Shown here in pieces: positions 6,332 to 60,500 of a stretch of DNA of 64,000 bases. Both the position numbers and the translations under genes were made by a program. Within the stretch, counting starts at the first letter, position 1. Each line of letters begins with the position of its first letter. The stretch is from SAR202 cluster bacterium bin16. Lineage in GTDB: Bacteria > Chloroflexota > Dehalococcoidia > Lucifugimonadales > Australimonadaceae. Under the pieces are notes generated by a model. It was not told the origin of the DNA, did no database searches, and saw only the letters and a program-made list of their open reading frames with translations. The stretch spans positions 37,454-101,453 of the forward strand of contig MPMJ01000004.1 of NCBI GenBank assembly GCA_002238425.1, read 5' to 3'.

Positions 6332-6445
6332 GCGAAAGCTCCGTGCGGGGTGTCGTCCAGGCGGGATTCTAGCATAGCTTCCTCTGCCATCCGCTCCTAC
6401 GACCAGCCCCCGACTGCGGCCCTGTGCACGCTGCCCGCGCGCTCT

Positions 6446-6513
6446 GGATTCCCGCCGGTGCGGGAATGACGGGGGAACGGGCTGCGAGGTTCCTGCCTGC
6501 GCAGGAACGACGG
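6446..6513. repeat. Family D hairpin repeats, two copies (attcccgc-cggt-gcgggaatgacgg; ggttcctgc-ctgc-gcaggaacgacgg)
   Basis: Related copies occur at 18062-18140 (inside mutS), 57489-57514 and 60451-60476. Confidence 0.75.
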
Positions 6514-10882: not shown

Positions 10883-12710
10883 GTGACGGAGGCGTACGAG
10901 GCCCTCGCGAAGCGCGCCTCGGCGCGGTGGGACGAACTGCACGCCAGGCCCTGGGTGCGCGTCGGGACGGGCCTGATGGGCGAGGCCGTGGGCGCGCTCG
11001 AAGTGCTTGCGGCGGTGCGGGAAGCCGTCGAAAAGGCAGGCGTCGAGGCGACCATCTCCGAGGTGGGCACGACCGGGCTGTGCTACGCGGAGCCGATCGT
11101 GGACGTCCACGTGCCGGACCGCCCCCGTGTGCGCTATGGGAACGTCCGGCCCGAGCAGGTCGAGGCCATCGTGCAGCGACACGTCATTGGCGGTGAGCCA
11201 GTGACGGAGCTCGCGCTCGCGAGCGTCGATTCGAACGTTCCGGGCGTCCCGCGTTTCGAGCAGCTGCCGATGATGCAGGGACAGGTGCGCGTCGCGCTGC
11301 GCAACGCGGGGGAGATCGACCCGACCGACATCGACCAGTACGTCGCGCGGGGCGGCTTCTCCGGGCTGGACAAGGCGCTGACGTCGCTCACGACGGAGCA
11401 GACGCTGGACGAGGTGAAGAACTCCGGCCTGCGCGGCCGCGGTGGCGCGGCGTTCTCGACCGGCATGAAGTGGGGCTTCCTCGCGGGGAACCCCGCGCCG
11501 CAGAAGTACATCCTCTGCAACTGCGAGGAGGGCGACCCCGGCGCGTTCAACGACAAGACGATCCTGGAGTCGGACCCGTTCACGCTCGTGGAGGGCTGCA
11601 TCATCGCGGGCTACGCGACGGGTGCGAGCAACGGCATCGTCTTCATCCGGCACGGCCACGATTCCCCGATAGACCGCACCCGCGCCGCGATACAGGCGTG
11701 CTACGACAACGGCGTGCTCGGGCCCAGCGTCCTCGGCACGGAGTTCTCGTTCGACATGGAAGTCTCGCTCGTCGGTGAGTCGTACGTCGCGGGCGAGGAG
11801 ACGGCGCTGATGGAGGCGATAGAGGGCAAGCGTTCCATGCCGCGGTTCCGACCTCCGTTCCCGGCGGCCTACGGCGTGTGGGGCAGGCCGTCCAACATCA
11901 ACAACATCAAGACGCTCAGCTACGCGCCGGAGATCGTGCGTCGCGGCGCGGAGTGGTTCTCGAGCATCGGCACCGAGAAGAGCACAGGCACGGCCATCGC
12001 CTGCCTCTCCGGCGACATCCGCTACCCGGGTCTCGTCGAGGTGCCGTTCGGCCTGACGGTCCACGACATCATCGAGGGGATGGGCGGCGGCGAGCCGAAC
12101 GGCAAGGCGCTGAAGTTCCTGCAGACCGGCGGGGGGGGCCGCCGGCGGGGGGCCGGCGGGGGGGGGCGGGCGGGGGGGGCCGCTCCGCCCGCGGGGGCCG
12201 GCGGAGCAGTTCGACATGGTGCTCGACTTCGACGCGATGGTCGCGGCGGGCGCGATGTTCGGCTCAGGCGGCCTCATCGTCTGCAACGAGGAGCGTTCGG
12301 TCGTCGACCTCACGCGCACGCTCGTCGCGTTCGATCAGATGGAGTCGTGCGGGAAGTGTTTCCCGTGCAGGCTCGGCATGAGCCACATCCTGGAGATACT
12401 GGAGCGCATCGCGGACGGGAAGGGGCGCAGCAGCGACATGGACCTGATGGAGCGCGTCGGCGTGAACATGCGCGGAGGTTCGCTCTGCGGTCACGGGCAA
12501 CTGGGGTACAACCCCGTGGCGAGCGCGGTGCGCTTCTTCGGCAGCGAGTTCGAGGCGCAACTGGAGGACGGCGCGCCATCCCTGGCTTCGTTCGTGGGGC
12601 CGAAGTCCACGCGGCGCGGTGCGCAGATGTCGGGCGACACGCCGACGGCGTCGGTGAAGCCGGACTTCGTGATGCACATCGAGGCTGCGGGGGCAGCACC
12701 CCCATCCTAG
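10883..12710 (+). pseudogene. NuoF/HoxF/FdsB-like NADH-binding FMN/[4Fe-4S] flavoprotein, reading frame broken at 12131-12200
   Basis: The N-part in frame 2 (GLRGRGGAAFSTGMKW, CNCEEGDPGAF, YVAGEETALMEAIEG) runs up to ..ALKFLQTGG. The C-part in frame 0 (EQFDMVLDFDAMVAAGAMFGSGG...ESCGKCFPCRLG...SLCGHG) ends at 12710. The listed 650-aa ORF tail after 12130 is Gly/Arg nonsense. Confidence 0.75.
12131..12197 (+). repeat. G-run tract (runs of 8, 6, 9, 3, 8 and 5 G) inside the nuoF-like gene
   Basis: ggggggggccgccggcggggggccggcgggggggggcgggcggggggggccgctccgcccgcggggg. Removing 43 nt (12134-12176) restores one continuous frame. Confidence 0.8.
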
Positions 12711-17537: not shown

Positions 17538-20180
17538 GTGGCCAGCCCCGTCCGCAAGCAGTACCTGGAGATCAAGTCGCGCTATCCGGATGCGCTGCTC
17601 CTGTACCGTATGGGCGACTTCTACGAGACGTTCGATGAGGACGCCCGGCTCGCGGCTCGCGACCTGGAGATAGTCCTCACGCAGCGAGACATGGGGCAGG
17701 GGGAGGTGGTGCCGCTCGCGGGCATCCCGTACCACGCGCTGGACGGCTACCTCGCCAAGCTCGTGCGCAAGGGGCACCGGGTCGCTATCGCGGAGCAGAC
17801 GAGCGAGCCGGACGGCAGGACGCTCGTGAGCAGGGACGTGGTCCGCGTCGTCACGCCCGGCACCGTCATCGAGCCGGGGATGCTGGACTCCGGCGCGAAC
17901 AACTACCTCGCCGCCGTGGCGCAGGGCGGTGCGCAGTCCGGGATCGCGTTCGTGGACATCACCACCGGCGAGTTCGCGGTTGCGCAGTTGCCTACGGGTG
18001 CCGTGCCGCAGGAGATCGCCCGGCTAGCTCCGTCCGAATTGCTCCTGGCGGAGGGGGGCGAGATTCCCGCTTTCGCGGGAATGACGGATGGGGCAGGAAT
18101 GACGGATGGGACGGGAGTGACGGGTGGGGCGGGAATGCCCGACTGCCACGTGACGCGGGTGGACGGGGCGAGTTTCGCGCCGAACGCCGCGCGGCGGCGC
18201 GTGCTCGACCACTTCGGCGTGCGCTCGCTCGACGCGTTCGGGTGCGAGGGGCTGGAGTTCGCGACCGTCGCGGCTGCCGTCGTGCTGGACTACGTGGGCA
18301 GCACGCACATGGCCGCGCTGCCGCAGCTGACCGGCCTGCGGACATACTCGACCGACACGTTCATGGCGCTCGACCCGCAGACACGGCGGAACCTCGAACT
18401 GTTCGAGGGTGGCCGCTGGGGGGCGAAGGGGCAGTCGCTGCTGAGCGTGCTCGACGGCACCGAGACGCCGATGGGCGCGCGGCTGCTCCGGCGGTGGGTC
18501 GGCCAGCCGCTGCTGGACCTCGATGCGCTCGAACGCCGACTGGACGCCGTGGCTTGGCTGCATGCGTCGGACGTCCGGCGTCAGCGCATACGCGCGGAGC
18601 TGGCCGAGGTGTCGGACCTCGAACGGGCGGTGCAGCGCATCGGCACGGGCGTCGCCTTCCCTCGCGAATTGGCGGGGCTGCGCCGCTCGCTCGAACGCGT
18701 CCCGGCGCTGTGTGCGCTGACGGAGGAAGCCGGGGCTGACCTAGCGTGGCTGACCTCGGAGTTGGACCCCTGCGAGAGCGCCGTGGAGCGCATCAAGGCA
18801 ACCATTACAGACGACCCGCAGGGCGACGTGGGGCAGGGGAGAGTGGTCCGCGAGGGCTACTCCGAGGAGATGGACGAGGTGCGGCTGGCCGCGCAGGACG
18901 CGCGTTCCTACATCGCGGGGCTGGAGCGGAAGGAGCGCGAGCGCACCGGCATCTCGAACCTGAAGGTCGGCTACAACAGGGTGTTCGGCTACTACCTGGA
19001 GGTCTCCAACGCCCACAGCGCGAGCGTGCCCGATGACTACGTCCGCCGCCAGACGCTCGTCAACGCGGAGCGGTTCTACACGCAGGAGTTGAAGGAGCAC
19101 GAGAACCGCGTGCTCAGCGCGGGCGACCGCCTGCAGGAGATGGAGACCGCCATCTACAAGCAGGTCTGCCGCGATGTGGCGTCGCATGCCTCGGAGATAC
19201 TCGCGACCGCCGCCGCGCTCGCGACGCTGGACGCGCTGCTGTCGCTGGCCGAGGCTGCCGTCCGCTACGGCTACGTGCGGCCCATGCTCGACGAGGGCGA
19301 GCGGCTCGTGCTGCGCGACGCCCGGCATCCGGTGGTGGAGCGCTTTCTCCCCAGCGGCGCGTTCGTCCCGAACGACACCGACCTCTCCACCGACGAGAAC
19401 CAACTGGTGATACTCACGGGCCCGAACATGGCGGGCAAGTCCACCTACCTCCGGCAGGTGGCCGTCGCGGTGCTGATGGCGCAGATCGGCTCGTTCGTAC
19501 CAGCGGCGGAAGCGCACGTGGGTTTGGTCGACCGCATCTTCACGCGCGTCGGCCTGCAGGACGACCTCGCGAGCGGGCAGTCCACGTTCATGGTGGAGAT
19601 GGTCGAGACCGCCGCGATACTCCACCACGCGACACGGCGGTCGCTCGTGATACTGGACGAGATAGGGCGGGGGACCTCGACGTTCGACGGCCTCTCCATC
19701 GCGCAGGCGGTTGCAGAGCACATCCACGACGCGTCCCGCCTCGGCTGCCGCACGCTGTTCGCGACGCACTACCACGAGCTGACGGCGCTGGCCGACCGCC
19801 TGCCGCGCGTCCTCAACCTGAGCGTTGCCGTTTCCGACCGCGATGGGGAAGTGGTCTTCCTGCACCGCATCGTGCACGGCGGTGCGGACAGGAGCTACGG
19901 CGTGCACGTCGCGCAGCTCGCGGGACTGCCGAGACCGCTCATCACACGGGCGAGGGAGTTGCTCGCGGAGCACGAGGGCATGCCGGCGAAGGGCCGCGCT
20001 CGAGGGAAGCGTCCGCTGCCGGGCGCCCCTCCCCAGAGCGCGATGCCGCTCTTCGGCGGCGTCTCGCCGGAGGCGTCGCGCATCCTCGACGAGTTGCGGG
20101 AGATGGACCTGGACAACCTCACGCCGCGCCAGGCGCTCGACAAGCTCGCGGAGTTGCGGGAGCAGGCAGGGGAGTCGTGA
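17538..20180 (+). CDS. mutS: DNA mismatch repair protein MutS
   Basis: 880-aa ORF with a GTG start. N-terminus KQYLEIKSRYPDALLLYRMGDFYETF, Walker A GPNMAGKST and STFMVEM motifs are present. Confidence 0.95.
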   Translation: MASPVRKQYLEIKSRYPDALLLYRMGDFYETFDEDARLAARDLEIVLTQRDMGQGEVVPLAGIPYHALDGYLAKLVRKGHRVAIAEQTSEPDGRTLVSRDVVRVVTPGTVIEPGMLDSGANNYLAAVAQGGAQSGIAFVDITTGEFAVAQLPTGAVPQEIARLAPSELLLAEGGEIPAFAGMTDGAGMTDGTGVTGGAGMPDCHVTRVDGASFAPNAARRRVLDHFGVRSLDAFGCEGLEFATVAAAVVLDYVGSTHMAALPQLTGLRTYSTDTFMALDPQTRRNLELFEGGRWGAKGQSLLSVLDGTETPMGARLLRRWVGQPLLDLDALERRLDAVAWLHASDVRRQRIRAELAEVSDLERAVQRIGTGVAFPRELAGLRRSLERVPALCALTEEAGADLAWLTSELDPCESAVERIKATITDDPQGDVGQGRVVREGYSEEMDEVRLAAQDARSYIAGLERKERERTGISNLKVGYNRVFGYYLEVSNAHSASVPDDYVRRQTLVNAERFYTQELKEHENRVLSAGDRLQEMETAIYKQVCRDVASHASEILATAAALATLDALLSLAEAAVRYGYVRPMLDEGERLVLRDARHPVVERFLPSGAFVPNDTDLSTDENQLVILTGPNMAGKSTYLRQVAVAVLMAQIGSFVPAAEAHVGLVDRIFTRVGLQDDLASGQSTFMVEMVETAAILHHATRRSLVILDEIGRGTSTFDGLSIAQAVAEHIHDASRLGCRTLFATHYHELTALADRLPRVLNLSVAVSDRDGEVVFLHRIVHGGADRSYGVHVAQLAGLPRPLITRARELLAEHEGMPAKGRARGKRPLPGAPPQSAMPLFGGVSPEASRILDELREMDLDNLTPRQALDKLAELREQAGES
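18062..18140 (+). repeat. Family D hairpin plus 3.7 copies of an 18-nt unit, inserted in frame in mutS
   Basis: gattcccgctttcgcgggaatgacgg is followed by gcgggaatgacggatggg / gcaggaatgacggatggg / acgggagtgacgggtggg / gcgggaatgccc. It encodes IPAFAGMTDGAGMTDGTGVTGGAGMP. Confidence 0.8.
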
Positions 20181-30577: not shown

Positions 30578-31760
30578 GACGATGACGATCAGCGGGGCTG
30601 TCGCCGCCCCGATGTTCAGCGTCTTCATCCCCCGGTGGTCGGACGAGTTCGGCTGGTCGCGCACGGCCATCTCCGGCGCGTTCAGCTTCGGGACGGTCGC
30701 AGCCGCGCTGGCAGGGCCGCTGGTCGGCAGGGCGCTCGACAAGTACGGCGGGCGGTGGGTGATGGGTGGCGGCGGGCTGCTCATGGCGGCCTCGGTTGCG
30801 GGACTGGGGTTCGTGGGGAACCTCGTGGGCCTCTACGCCGCGCTCGTGGTCGCGCGAACGGCGTTGATGAGCATCCAGAACCTGGGCGGGCACACGGTCA
30901 TCGCCAACTGGTTCGTGCAACGGAGGGCGTTCGCGACGGCGGTCGCGGTGAACGGAAGCCGCCTGGGGCTGGGGCTGTGGCCGCTGCTGGGGGCCGCGCT
31001 CATCGCTGTGATGGGCTGGCGGGAGGCGCTGTGGATGGTCGGCGCGCTCATGGCGCTGTTTTCGTTCTTCCCGCTCATCGCCATCGTGTCGCGGCAGCCG
31101 GAGGACGTGGGGCTGTACCCGGACGGGCGTCCACCGCTCCCTGCCCACGAGGCCCAGTCGCGACAGGTGCGTGCCGAGCACCAGTGGCGTCCACGGGAGG
31201 CACTGCATACGCATGCGTTCTGGTTGTTGCTGTTCGCGCACATGGGCGCGATGGTGGCGGGCGGGGGCTACGGCCTGCACCGCATACCGCTCTTCCTCGA
31301 CCGGGGCCTCGCGGAAGGGTGGGTAGGGCCGGTGCTGATGTTCCACGCGGTGGGCATGCTCGTCGGTGGGTTCGTCGCCGCATGGTTCATGGGACGCACG
31401 TCCTACCGCGTCGTCATCGCGGGGTGCATGGCGGGCGCGTCGGCGGCGATGGCGGCTGCAGGTTTCATTCCCCCGGGTGTGCCGATGGCCGTCTTCACGT
31501 TTGCGGAATCGATGGTTTTCGGCGGCGTTTTCGCGATGTTGCCCGTCGTTTACGCCGAATATTTCGGGCGCGACTCGCTTGGAACGATACGAGGTATCGC
31601 GCATCCGGCGGTGGTGGCGTCGAACGCGGTCGGGCCGGTCTTCGCGGGATACGTGTTCGAATCGTCGGGGGCGTACACGATGGCGCTCGTTACCTTCAGC
31701 GTCGTGTTGGGCGTGGGGGCAGTCAGCGCGCTGCTGGCGCGCCGCCCGGTCCTGCGCTGA
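30513..31760 (+). CDS. MFS transporter (second, oxalate/formate-antiporter-like layout)
   Basis: 415-aa ORF with 12 hydrophobic segments and an AGPLVGRALDKYGGR loop motif. Confidence 0.85.
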   Translation: MRGPARATPFYYGWVVAGAVLMTMTISGAVAAPMFSVFIPRWSDEFGWSRTAISGAFSFGTVAAALAGPLVGRALDKYGGRWVMGGGGLLMAASVAGLGFVGNLVGLYAALVVARTALMSIQNLGGHTVIANWFVQRRAFATAVAVNGSRLGLGLWPLLGAALIAVMGWREALWMVGALMALFSFFPLIAIVSRQPEDVGLYPDGRPPLPAHEAQSRQVRAEHQWRPREALHTHAFWLLLFAHMGAMVAGGGYGLHRIPLFLDRGLAEGWVGPVLMFHAVGMLVGGFVAAWFMGRTSYRVVIAGCMAGASAAMAAAGFIPPGVPMAVFTFAESMVFGGVFAMLPVVYAEYFGRDSLGTIRGIAHPAVVASNAVGPVFAGYVFESSGAYTMALVTFSVVLGVGAVSALLARRPVLR

Positions 31761-31821
31761 GGAAGCAGAGCCTGGAAATCGGCGATGTTCGCCATGGGGT
31801 AATCGCAACCAAGTATCAGTT

Positions 31822-31862
31822 TCCGGCACCTTGTTGACACTCGTGCCGGAGAGGTAAACAAT
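31822..31862 (+). promoter_or_regulatory. Candidate sigma70-type promoter (TTGACA-N17-AACAAT) embedded in a perfect 8-bp inverted repeat (tccggcac-N13-gtgccgga)
   Basis: The -35 element is at 31834-31839, between the IR arms at 31822-31829 and 31843-31850. It lies 50-90 nt upstream of the His/Cys-rich gene (RBS aaggagg at 31901). Confidence 0.4.
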
Positions 31863-31912
31863 CTCTCCTGAATCCACGGCTGATTCTGGGAACGAGCACG
31901 CAAGGAGGAAAG

Positions 31913-32176
31913 ATGACCACTCACGTTCACGAGCATGACCACAGCGAAGCGGGTGACCACTGCCACGAGCACGAGGGCGAGCATTGCCATAGCCATGGCG
32001 ATGTGCACTGCCACGAGCACGGCGCGGGCCACTGCCACGTCCACGGCGACGAGGCATGCGCGTCCCTCGGCGGGGGCGAGCAGTTCGACGAGCACGGCGC
32101 CGAGCACTGCCACCAGCACGGCGAGGAGCACTGCGCGGACGCGGACGACCCGCACCACGCACCCCACGCAGCGTAA
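31913..32176 (+). CDS. Small His/Cys-rich metal-binding protein with repeated (D/E)HCH motifs
   Basis: 87 aa: MTTHVHEHDHSEAGDHCHEHEGEHCHSHGDVHCHEHGAGHCHVHGDEAC...EHCHQHGEEHCADADDPHH. Strong RBS. I recognise no family. Confidence 0.7.
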   Translation: MTTHVHEHDHSEAGDHCHEHEGEHCHSHGDVHCHEHGAGHCHVHGDEACASLGGGEQFDEHGAEHCHQHGEEHCADADDPHHAPHAA

Positions 32177-32229
32177 GGTCTCAAGAAGAGTGCTATAGTG
32201 CCGGTTGATAGCCGGTAAGGCAGCTTGGG

Positions 32230-32265
32230 CGGCGGCCTGGGGATACCGGGCCGCCGTCTTTGTGT
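32230..32265 (+). terminator. Stem-loop followed by tctttgtgt (intrinsic-terminator-like / attenuator) between the HCH gene and the CDF gene
   Basis: Stem cggcggcc(ugg)/(cc g)ggccgccg spans 32230-32256 and is followed by a T-rich tail. RBS aaggag at 32267 and GTG at 32283 follow directly. Confidence 0.5.
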
Positions 32266-32282
32266 AAAGGAGCCGTGTCGTT

Positions 32283-33647
32283 GTGACAACTGAACACCGC
32301 CACGAGGATGAGGGCGACGATCACGACGAGCATGAGCATGGCCACGAGGGCCATGACCATGACGCGCACGCCGAGCACGACCATGGCCACGAGGGCCATG
32401 ACCATGATGCGCACGCGGAGCACGACCATGGCCACGAAGGCCACGACCACGACGCGCATGCCGAGCACGACCATGGCCACGAGGGCCACGACCACGACGC
32501 GCACGCCGAGCACGACCATGGCCACGAAGACCACGACCACGACGCGCACGCCGGGCATGACCATGGCCACGAGGGCCACGACCATGATGCGCACGCCGAG
32601 CATGATCACGGCCACGAAGACCACGACCACGACGCGCACGCCGGGCATGAGCATGATGATCACGGGCACGGCGGGCACGACCACCACGGACATGGCCACG
32701 AGGGCCACGACCATGACCACGCCCACGACCTGCGCGGAGCAAGCAAGAAAAGCCTTGTCATCGCCCTGGCGCTAATCTCCAGTTTCATGTTCGTAGAGGT
32801 GGTGGGCGGCGTACTGTCGGGGAGCCTTGCGCTGCTCGCGGATGCGGGCCACATGCTCACGGACGCCGCGGCGATCCTGCTCGCGCTCTTCGCCATGTGG
32901 ATAGCGGAGCGCCCCGCGTCGGTCGAGAGCACGTTCGGCTACTACAGAACCGAAGTGCTTGCCGCGCTGGCCAATACGCTCAGCCTGTGGCTCATAGCGG
33001 GCTGGATATTCTTCGAGGCATACCACCGCATCAGGGATACGCCCGAGGTCGAGGGGCCGCTGCTCCTCGGAGTCGGCGCGGCGGGTCTGGTCGTCAACAT
33101 CCTGGCGGCCTACGTCCTCCACCGCGCGGCGGGCGAGAGCCTGAACGCCGAGGGCGCGTTCCAGCACGTCATGGCGGACCTGTTCGGCTCCATCGGCGTC
33201 GTGGTATCGGGCGTGCTGATCCTCGCGTTCGCGACGAGCCCGGACTCCCCCTGGTTCATCGTCGACCCTATCCTGAGCATCGGCATCGGCCTGCTCATCC
33301 TGCGGAGTTCCTGGGGCCTGTTCATGCGGGTGTTCAACGTGCTCATCGAAGGCACGCCCAAGCACCTGGACATGTACCGCATCTGCAGCGACATGGAAGA
33401 CGTCCCCGGCGTGACCATCATCCACGACGTACACGCCTGGACGATCACTTCCGGGTACGACGCTATGACCGCGCACGTGCTGGTGGACTCCGCCCAACGC
33501 GGCAAGGAGGACGACATGCTCGCCCGGCTGCGTGAGATCGCCTACGGCTACGGCCTCGGCCACGTGACCTTGCAGTTGGAGTACTCCGCCACGGATTGCG
33601 AGGAGAACCACCACGTCGAGCACCTGGTAGCGCGTTCGCGGGCATAA
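32283..33647 (+). CDS. Cation diffusion facilitator (CzcD/ZitB-type) exporter with about 150-aa His-rich N-terminal extension
   Basis: The core from SLVIALALISSFMFVEVVGGVLSGSLALLADAGHMLTD onward shows the CDF TM2 HxxxD and TM5 motifs. The N-terminus consists of HDHGHEGHDHDAHAE repeats. Confidence 0.9.
   Translation: MTTEHRHEDEGDDHDEHEHGHEGHDHDAHAEHDHGHEGHDHDAHAEHDHGHEGHDHDAHAEHDHGHEGHDHDAHAEHDHGHEDHDHDAHAGHDHGHEGHDHDAHAEHDHGHEDHDHDAHAGHEHDDHGHGGHDHHGHGHEGHDHDHAHDLRGASKKSLVIALALISSFMFVEVVGGVLSGSLALLADAGHMLTDAAAILLALFAMWIAERPASVESTFGYYRTEVLAALANTLSLWLIAGWIFFEAYHRIRDTPEVEGPLLLGVGAAGLVVNILAAYVLHRAAGESLNAEGAFQHVMADLFGSIGVVVSGVLILAFATSPDSPWFIVDPILSIGIGLLILRSSWGLFMRVFNVLIEGTPKHLDMYRICSDMEDVPGVTIIHDVHAWTITSGYDAMTAHVLVDSAQRGKEDDMLARLREIAYGYGLGHVTLQLEYSATDCEENHHVEHLVARSRA
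32337..32651 (+). repeat. Seven tandem copies of a 45-bp coding repeat (HDHGHEGHDHDAHAE unit)
   Basis: Unit catggccacgagggccatgaccatgacgcgcacgccgagcacgac starts at 32337, 32382, 32427, 32472, 32517, 32562 and 32607, with a few substitutions per copy. Confidence 0.9.
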
Positions 33648-57316: not shown

Positions 57317-57488
57317 CGCTTCACCTCCTATGTGAGAGATCCGTGACAACCCTCACGATAGGAGTGAAATGTGACAGGAATATGTCGCCGGGCAGCAGTT
57401 TTTCCGCCCTCAGGCCCATCTGGACCAGGGGCTTGCGGTGCCATGAATGGAAACTGGACCGGGGCGCCTCCGCCGTCACTCAGGAGGC

Positions 57489-57514
57489 GGGATTCCTGCC
57501 TGCGCAGGAACGAC
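57489..57514. repeat. Family D hairpin repeat
   Basis: ggattcctgc-ctgc-gcaggaacgacg. Confidence 0.75.
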
Positions 57515-57628
57515 GAAACCGGCTGCCGCCCTCGATTCACCCGCATGGGCCGCACCCGGCGCGGGCATGGTCGGATAGCTCCGCCGTGCCGAAGCACTCC
57601 CGGATGCTCTTCCGGGCTTCGGCCCTGC

Positions 57629-60441: not shown

Positions 60442-60450
60442 CATATCTTC

Positions 60451-60476
60451 CGGTCATTCCCGCGAAAGCGGGATCC
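60451..60476. repeat. Family D hairpin repeat
   Basis: cggtcattcccgc-gaaa-gcgggatcc, the reverse complement of the element at the head of the mutS insertion. Confidence 0.75.
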
Positions 60477-60500
60477 AGAACGATCGTCAGGAGGAGAACA

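Follow-up and report, generated by a model that had tools for sequence, protein, structure and literature searches.

A REP-type hairpin with a tandem half-site array inside the mutS reading frame of a SAR202 bacterium (Dehalococcoidia)

The mutS locus and its repeat-derived block

The stretch of DNA analyzed here (the window) comprises 64,000 nucleotides of SAR202 cluster bacterium bin16 (Chloroflexota, Dehalococcoidia; assembly GCA_002238425.1, contig MPMJ01000004.1, positions 37,454 to 101,453, forward strand). It contains mutS, the gene of the mismatch-repair protein MutS, and within mutS lies a hairpin element of 24-26 nt that is followed by an array with an 18-nt period (18054-18143; Table 1). 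The hairpin belongs to a family of repetitive extragenic palindromic (REP) elements. The source genome, G000, has a size of 3.22 Mb and a G+C content of 65.6%, and the window forms part of its contig C45; other genomes, contigs, loci and database proteins are given as G, C, L and P numbers.

A sequence-only reading of the window had proposed that both the hairpin and the array are in frame in mutS. Reading the sequence directly confirmed this: the entire block is in frame within an intact open reading frame (ORF) of 880 residues, and Tandem Repeats Finder (TRF) calls the array at 18075-18137 with a period of 18, 3.5 copies, 84% matches and a score of 98. The block encodes the peptide GGEIPAFAGMTDGAGMTDGTGVTGGAGMPD, in the context ...AEGGEIPAFAGMTDGAGMTDGTGVTGGAGMPDCHVTR... 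of the ORF. Its 3' boundary is uncertain by about 6-9 nt, since cccgac may be native. In the sense orientation found in mutS, one of the three frames of the element is shut by the TGA of AATGAC, the other two giving IPAFAGMT and DSRFRGND. In the centroid folds predicted for RNA and for DNA, the 8-bp stem dominates. Reading the hairpin as an intrinsic terminator was rejected, as no T-run follows it.

A collapsed or chimeric repeat, introduced by assembly or binning, has to be considered in an assembly of 101 contigs that often break at repeats. However, the contig is 116 kb long with the insert in its middle part, the block is present in five independent genomes, among them the single-contig 2.9-Mb genome G019, as well as in three further database proteins, and all of these keep the frame intact. 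An artifact is therefore extremely improbable.

Table 1. Features of the mutS block and related elements (window coordinates unless a contig is given).
Feature	Position	Strand	Remarks
mutS coding sequence	17538..20180	+	880 aa, intact; Pfam MutS_I, II, III, IV, V
Whole repeat-derived block	18054..18143	+	90 nt, aa 173-202; in place of the 36-nt native loop SDTTSVPTAAPD of most congeners (comparison of 22 genus alleles)
REP tail GGGGGCGAG (reverse complement CTCGCCCCC)	18054..18062	+	Common to other genomic copies including the pyrG copy
CGTC-1-type REP core: stem, loop, tag	18063..18086	+	89 exact genome matches to the 24-nt pattern
5' arm ATTCCCGC	18063-18070	+	8-bp stem
Hairpin loop TTTC	18071-18074	+	4 nt
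3' arm GCGGGAAT	18075-18082	+	Pairs with ATTCCCGC
Tag GACG	18083-18086	+	CGTC on the minus strand
Tandem array, unit = REP 3' half-site + tag + spacer (GCGGGAATGACGGNNGGG)	18075..18143	+	3 full 18-nt units and a partial fourth
Array unit 1 GCGGGAATGACGGATGGG	18075-18092	+	
Array unit 2 GCAGGAATGACGGATGGG	18093-18110	+	
Array unit 3 ACGGGAGTGACGGGTGGG	18111-18128	+	
Array unit 4, partial, GCGGGAATGCCCGAC	18129-18143	+	
Intergenic family pair, ATTCCCGC subtype then GTTCCTGC subtype	6444..6513	+	Sequence
First member of pair, CTGGATTCCCGCCGGTGCGGGAATGACGGG	6444-6473	+	ATTCCCGC subtype
Second member of pair	6478-6513	+	TTCCTGC/GCAGGAA subtype; sequence
Intergenic family member	57483..57516	+	TTCCTGC/GCAGGAA subtype; sequence
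Intergenic family member, opposite orientation	60449..60478	-	CGTC-tag side first on plus strand; one arm shortened/imperfect
pyrG	G000:C57:11394-12260	-	Outside the window; loci L112-L132

A dispersed hairpin family specific to the genus

The 24-nt pattern of the core, ATTCCCGC-N4-GCGGGAATGACG, matches the source genome 89 times against none for the reversed control, so that the family is not a product of chance, and the looser hairpin core TTCC[CT]GC-N-GC[GA]GGAA occurs 188 times in 3.2 Mb. The related intergenic copies which the sequence-only reading had pointed out in the window were all found (6444-6513, 57483-57516 and 60449-60478, the last reversed and with one imperfect arm). About 6-7 hairpins of the genome lie in credible ORFs, while the intergenic share is an approximate figure. 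The family is genus-specific: 20 of the 21 other genomes of the genus possess it at 24-629 copies and G007 has a single copy, while 19 other genera of the order essentially lack it, apart from 17 copies in G035. Rfam holds no family for the element; its sole match was a sub-threshold chance hit elsewhere in mutS.

Sub-families differ by arm (CCCGC/GCGGG or CCTGC/GCAGG), by tail (CCAG or CTCGC[AG]GCC/CTCGCCCCC) and by loop, genomic copies having YTTC, CGGT and CTGT loops among others. Most genomic copies of the ATTCCCGC type end in ...GGGAATCCAG; the copies in mutS and in the CTP synthase gene pyrG have the CTCGCCCCC tail, which belongs to a sub-family. One or two additional half-site units, spaced at 17-22 nt, come after 44 of the 168 oriented hairpins of the genome. 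A hairpin followed by an array is thus an architecture of the family and not a peculiarity of mutS. Among the coding copies examined, the spacing was invariably 18. The mutS array, in which three more units come after the 3' arm, is no shorter than any other that our scan detected in this genome, where it found at most two extra units elsewhere.

Class membership and related systems

CGTC-1 REPs are defined by a CGTC tag, an 8-bp stem with A/T pairs in the first two positions, a 4-nt loop and a short tail, which is unpaired, located at the untagged end and of the consensus CCA (Di Nocera, De Gregorio & Rocco 2013, PMC3733652). The same authors assign both Neisseria dRS3 and RPE-6 of Rickettsia conorii to this class. 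Read on the minus strand, the mutS element is CGTC-ATTCCCGC-GAAA-GCGGGAAT-tail. A terminal CGTC is present at one end (GACG at 18083-18086), the 8-bp stem starts with AT (ATTCCCGC/GCGGGAAT), the loop comprises 4 nt (TTTC at 18071-18074), and the element belongs to an abundant, dispersed and mostly intergenic family (in 3.2 Mb, 89 copies match exactly and 188 match the looser core). It differs in having the CTCGCCCCC tail instead of the CCA tail. Judged by its sequence, the mutS element fits the CGTC-1 class and is dRS3/RPE-6-like. With the CGTC-1 REPs described in PMC3733652 the family has in common that it is dispersed, high in copy number and mostly intergenic, with occasional in-frame copies in genes, that it occurs in a DNA-repair gene and that it serves as a target of insertion sequences (IS). 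The host, in contrast, is a genus of the Dehalococcoidia (Chloroflexota), and about a quarter of the copies are followed by tandem 17-22-nt half-site units, while that source describes dimers and clusters of whole units only. It reports CGTC repeats from five phyla without naming them and names the Chloroflexi only for GTAG repeats; in its accessible text and supplements mutS does not occur. Our literature search found no paper on REPs in mutS or in Dehalococcoidia. Thus CGTC-1 REPs in frame in genes, including DNA-repair genes, are known from that source, while the host lineage and the host gene mutS are new. More unusual are the half-site arrays and the repeated remodeling of the same loops among sister species.

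The likeness to Rickettsia palindromic elements (RPE; Ogata et al., cited in PMC3733652), drawn already in the sequence-only reading, proved apt: RPE-6 falls into the CGTC-1 class, and for intragenic CGTC-1 copies of other phyla the supplementary table of PMC3733652 lists the same peptides (WIPAFTGMT, EIPAFAGMT, EIPASAGMT, DSRFRGND, VIPAKAGI). RPEs are likewise selfish palindromes that add a peptide to functional ORFs at permissive sites, and the mutS copy is in frame in a gene that is intact, comprises all domains and shows a ratio of nonsynonymous to synonymous substitution rates (dN/dS) of 0.055-0.094. However, RPE-1 elements are longer palindromic insertions (PMC3733652), compared to a 26-nt core plus array here, and the RPE family is defined in Rickettsia genomes, whereas our host belongs to the Dehalococcoidia and has only the CGTC-1 architecture in common with RPE-6. 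Unlike RPEs, the elements described here differ among sister species in presence, copy number and even repeat family at one loop. The mutS element works like an RPE but is not classed as one. Nor is it a miniature inverted-repeat transposable element, defined as a 70-300-bp element with 15-30-bp terminal inverted repeats (PMC3733652): its core is a 20-nt stem-loop with tag and tail, and there are no terminal inverted repeats at the junctions of the block with mutS.

Loop alleles across the genus

We compared mutS in 22 genomes of the genus and in 18 more distant genomes. A native loop of 12 residues, AE-SDTTSVPTAAPD-CHVTR, is present in 15 of the 22, including the early-branching G002, G004, G007 and G009, and alignment with these orthologues confirmed the insert. 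As outgroup species and most congeners have the native loop, the REP insert is the derived state. The block replaces 36 native nt and results in a net gain of 54 nt, or 18 residues, in G000; this corrects the earlier description of roughly 20 added residues, both in the figure and in that the change is no pure insertion. Neither outcome named as a refutation in the sequence-only reading was observed: congeners that possess the hairpin family mostly keep the native loop without the peptide, and the segment is not conserved across the class.

In five genomes the REP block occupies an identical position and agrees in orientation, frame and GGGGGCGAG tail, the 3' junction varying little. These genomes differ in the number of units, which is four in G000, G006 and G011 and two in G013 and G019. 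Protein databases provided further alleles: P0001 (DNA in L162) has five units, P0002 two units in a G011-like background, P0003 two units, and P0021 is a deletion form, GGEVPGEWQ. The length variability predicted for the tract is consequently real between species (2, 4 or 5 units). Across alleles the units read GMT-D/E/G/A/R-GA, and the variable positions are those of the DNA spacer rather than selected residues. An intragenic tandem array whose unit number differs among close relatives is reminiscent of the contingency loci of pathogens. However, since the 18-nt period is a multiple of three (6 codons), the array cannot be an on/off frameshift switch: it changes loop length only, all alleles of 2-5 units are in frame, and we found no evidence of phase variation for the mutS array.

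Two genomes, G005 and G017, possess yet another loop (L013, L012), ALNIDGQD(GQD)NGAGGEWQ, which derives from a second dispersed family, tCAaCATCGATGGACAGGAT, with the 9-nt tandem unit GGACAGGAT and 11-29 copies per genome versus 0-1 for the control. At their 3' end these alleles contain aacggggcagggggcgag, which may be left over from the REP allele. In G000, copies of the second family are found for instance at C45:33138, C45:114787 and C51:7912, and its genic copies encode IDGQDGQD.

In a mutS tree built without the loop the carriers are scattered. The approximately unbiased (AU) test rejected a single clade of all REP carriers (p = 1e-5) as well as a single clade of all non-native alleles (p = 1e-4), and a single insertion followed by vertical descent is thereby rejected. 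Three carrier groups suffice: G000 and G006 are sisters in the best tree, G013, G019, G005 and G017 may form a clade (p = 0.42), and G011 stands apart (p = 0.0016 and 0.049). Because the carriers are not one clade, yet agree in 5' junction, tail and frame, their history would require short-patch recombination or else site-specific events that recurred.

The insert in the MutS protein

Compared with E. coli MutS structures, the 880-residue ORF gave an E-value of 8e-183. The insert aligns with roughly residues 178-197 of E. coli MutS and lies between two beta-strands within Pfam MutS_II (aa 122-264), which is the connector domain (domain II). Its placement between the mismatch-binding and connector domains in the sequence-only reading was therefore wrong. 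We obtained an AlphaFold2 model from a 72-sequence alignment (mean predicted local distance difference test, pLDDT, 85.9; predicted template modeling score 0.82). In this model residues 172-203 are coil without secondary structure between the strands 167-171 (ELLLA) and 204-208 (HVTRV), pLDDT falls below 50 at residues 183-199, and the insert is accordingly predicted to be disordered. In more distant Dehalococcoidia orthologues the loop at this position comprises 29-50 residues and varies widely in length. Since the loop is predicted to be disordered and is length-variable across the class, the extra Gly/Ala/Thr/Met-rich residues should be tolerated.

Outside the loop, dN/dS (at dS values of 0.22-0.53) was 0.055 for the two closest carriers and 0.061-0.064 for carriers against non-carriers, and it never exceeded 0.094; mutS is under strong purifying selection. 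An intact mutL is found as well; it encodes the DQHAxxE endonuclease motif and is free of the repeat. By these signs MutS appears to remain a functional mismatch-repair protein. We consider the insert best read as a tolerated passenger.

In detail, the block is a copy of a genus-specific CGTC-1-type REP, joined by an array of its own 3' half-site that slippage may have made, and the whole has become part of the mutS frame. Occupying a disordered, length-variable loop of the connector domain, its additional residues would be tolerated, and the 18-nt period of six codons would let the array gain or lose units in frame and thus give rise to alleles with 2, 4 and 5 units. The mutS hairpin would keep step with the genomic pool of REPs, its arms changing together, while MutS would stay a working mismatch-repair protein. 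We consider it probable that the block is such a selfish passenger, its array length changing by slippage, and not a regulatory device.

Four points weigh against this view. The carriers are not one clade, and at least three groups are needed. No carrier haplotype is recognizable in the flanks, 240 nt on either side: right to the junction, the sequence of G000 is like that of two non-carriers, G003 and G020, and the sequence of G011 is like that of another, G021. The neutrality of the insert is inferred from the conservation of the rest of mutS. Finally, R220/R221 align with E. coli Q211/Q212, residues that are buried in MutL interface 2 (PMC4521584), and follow the insert at a distance of 17 residues, so that MutL recruitment may be affected.

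pyrG and further host genes

To find further in-frame copies, we scanned for hairpins spanned by long ORFs with coding-type G+C at third codon positions on both sides and checked the candidates against Pfam. CTP synthase (pyrG) has an in-frame copy, RGGEIPAFAGMTGTAGMTGTGGEG, within CTP_synth_N. The loop between FMLRAQ and PDVVLVEVGGT is empty in 10 and colonized in 11 of 21 genomes of the genus. The colonized loops differ widely; among them are loops with the REP read in the IPAFAGMT frame, with a pair of REPs in the DSRLRGND frame, with the IDGQD family or with combinations of these, and there is a composite of 105 residues. The insert in G000 is flanked by a direct repeat of GGGGGCGAG. To judge by their sequences, the pyrG insertions are clearly independent events at one loop, and this loop is even more variable than that of mutS. 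Such permissive loops are either the strongly filtered survivors of a high insertion flux or preferred targets.

A major facilitator superfamily (MFS) transporter has an in-frame insert, PHPNLPPSRGKGPGGVPAFAGTT, from two repeat families; in its central loop (G000:C71:4162-4212, plus strand) TTCCCCCATCAAGGGGGAA (PNLPPSRGKG) lies in frame beside a CGTC-type REP (GVPAFAGTT). Two terminase-like paralogues contain in-frame copies as well, VVPAEAGTSQP and GGEIPASAGMTG, which suggests that prophage or gene-transfer-agent-like regions may also be colonized. These genes resemble terminase large subunits with a weak Pfam Terminase_6N match (G000:C47:972-2621, plus strand; G000:C45:~31560-32940, minus strand), have their REPs at the same position, and the second lies just upstream of the window. 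Two candidates were dropped. A hormone-sensitive-lipase-type esterase (G000:C34:30884-31927, plus strand), a member of a cluster of paralogues, has a REP and two 18-nt units (LDSRFRGNDGVGGNDRESGNDG) at ~31150, just before its conserved core; as the closest orthologues match only from residue 107, just past the repeat, the N-terminal part may be recombinant and the repeat may mark a junction that is recombinant or upstream, so that the gene is no clean in-frame example. A 2.2-kb ORF with at least five hairpins (G000:C59, 24052-26283) is a spurious low-complexity frame and not a gene.

A rival idea is that the insert is a functional modulator, a flexible loop which, in length steps of six residues, tunes MutS-MutL coupling or MutS turnover and hence mutation or recombination rates. 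Di Nocera et al. report that REPs are over-represented in replication and repair genes and raise the modulator or mutator idea for REPs in uvr, rec and pol genes (PMC3733652). The mutS loop belongs to the connector domain, is near in sequence to the residues aligned with the MutL-interface glutamines of E. coli, and has been remodeled several times within the genus, as two repeat families and a deletion form show. However, where the units vary they do so like the spacers of intergenic copies, the prediction for the insert is disorder, and pyrG, an unrelated enzyme, is equally or more variable, which favors permissiveness over a repair-specific role. Furthermore, the terminal mutS branches of the carriers G000 and G006 (0.036, 0.042) are not longer than those of non-carrier sisters (0.047, 0.065), while that of the carrier G011 (0.11) exceeds its non-carrier sisters (0.067, 0.084). 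A modulator function is thus improbable.

Possible mobilizers

CGTC REPs are reported without a dedicated transposase, unlike the REPtrons formed by GTAG REPs and REP-associated tyrosine transposases (RAYT) (PMC3733652). The source genome has one RayT-like Y1/HUH transposase gene with HUH and YYEH motifs (G000:C67:~69735-70290, minus strand; locus L111); one REP lies 100 nt downstream of it, while no REP was seen on the upstream side. This ORF itself holds an in-frame palindromic insert, GVGAGFKPAPTGAGVG (from ggggcaggtttgaaacctgcccc), of a further repeat family.

All nine copies of an IS30-family IS end in the assembly adjoin a REP hairpin at one position, ...GCAGGAA being followed directly by GGTGAATTCAC / GGTGAATTCACATTCGAAG. 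These ends are located at contig ends (C3, C24, C37, C38, C46, C69, C71, C75, C76), the IS breaking the assembly. A complete IS in G003 (L172, G003:C1:2928530-~2929650) is flanked by REPs and codes for a DDE transposase of the IS30 type. Copy numbers are 3 in G003, 14 in G005, 19 in G020 and 0 in G019, G001 and G017. As the IS end always lies at a REP hairpin, REPs are landing pads of this IS in the genus.

REP elements and bacterial interspersed mosaic elements (BIME) are targets of IS1397 and ISPpu9/10. Here, likewise, an IS, of the IS30 family, sits at a fixed hairpin position, but the target is a CGTC-type REP and the relevance to mutS is only potential. The mutS copy might be a landing pad as well, and it could then be a knock-out hotspot that generates mutator subpopulations, in line with REPs being IS targets in other bacteria (PMC3733652). 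However, none of the 22 genomes of the genus has an interrupted mutS, all matches being free of internal stops, the IS-associated hairpins keep the tail side that the IS replaces, and the IS is absent in several carriers such as G019. We regard such a hotspot as very improbable.

One origin or several

The scattered carriers could also be explained if the mutS and pyrG loops were preferred targets of active REP spreading, by a RayT-like enzyme or by ectopic gene conversion, each carrier group having acquired its copy independently. The need for at least three carrier groups and the lack of a common flanking haplotype fit this idea, as do the independent pyrG insertions in different frames and from different families and the presence of a RayT-like gene with a REP close by. 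In addition, the hairpin in mutS tends to belong to a subtype well represented in its own genome: of the hybrid TTCCTGC..GCAGGAATGACG there are 14 copies in G013, 8 in G019 and 16 in G005, against 1-2 each in G000 (one copy), G011 and G003. On the other hand, the mutS carriers agree in 5' junction, tail, orientation and frame and nearly so in the 3' junction, an identity which the independent pyrG events lack, and G000 keeps an GCAGGAAT unit typical of the subtype of other carriers, a sign of single origin. CGTC REPs are, moreover, reported to do without a transposase of their own, as mentioned above. We also considered that empty loops might be proto-sites, as the empty mutS loop of G012/G014 has cgagcGTTCCCGCC and the empty pyrG site CGAGGGCCCGCC, both resembling REP tail plus arm. 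This was not supported: the Smith-Waterman scores of empty sites against the REP were 5-9, no more REP-like than 5000 random 45-nt genomic windows (median 7, 95th percentile 10). Recurrent targeted insertion is thus rather unlikely, and the alternative to it is a single origin with short-patch exchange and concerted evolution. The carrier groups differ at both arms together (CCCGC/GCGGG versus CCTGC/GCAGG; C-G versus T-A), so that the stem has been maintained.

A bolder idea is that, in this genus, several hairpin families are still being inserted in frame, actively and repeatedly, at a small number of permissive loops in core enzymes, namely the MutS connector (two families, 2-5 units, a deletion form) and CTP synthase (11 of 21 genomes, at least two families, two frames). 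We hold this to be unlikely and mention it tentatively. If true, it would imply a targeted or homology-independent mechanism of insertion or conversion and protein-length polymorphism among sister species, and in MutS the coupling to MutL might change or the gene be exposed to IS30-mediated knock-out.

Other repeats of the window

The window contains two further repeat tracts. At 32315-32655 lies a 45-nt tandem repeat (7.6 copies, 88% identity, TRF score 493), flanked by repeats of 6-24 nt rich in CAC/GAC codons (31958-32730); the region probably encodes a His/Asp-rich repetitive protein segment. At 12126-12183 there is a G-rich tandem tract, CCGCCGGGGGGGG, with a period of 13/27, which includes a mostly-G run of ~33 nt.

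Significance

REPs in genes are usually described as rare and old curiosities. In contrast, the mutS and pyrG loops, which belong to two essential housekeeping proteins, vary among sister species in repeat presence, family, frame and unit number. They thereby provide a natural series of alleles for how such elements enter coding DNA and for how much loop insertion a repair protein tolerates. With mutS, the list of repair genes with REPs gains a further member, and the CGTC-1 class is extended to the Dehalococcoidia. For annotation, the repeats explain the low-complexity AGMT, RGND, IDGQD and PSRGKG motifs in proteins of these metagenome-assembled genomes.

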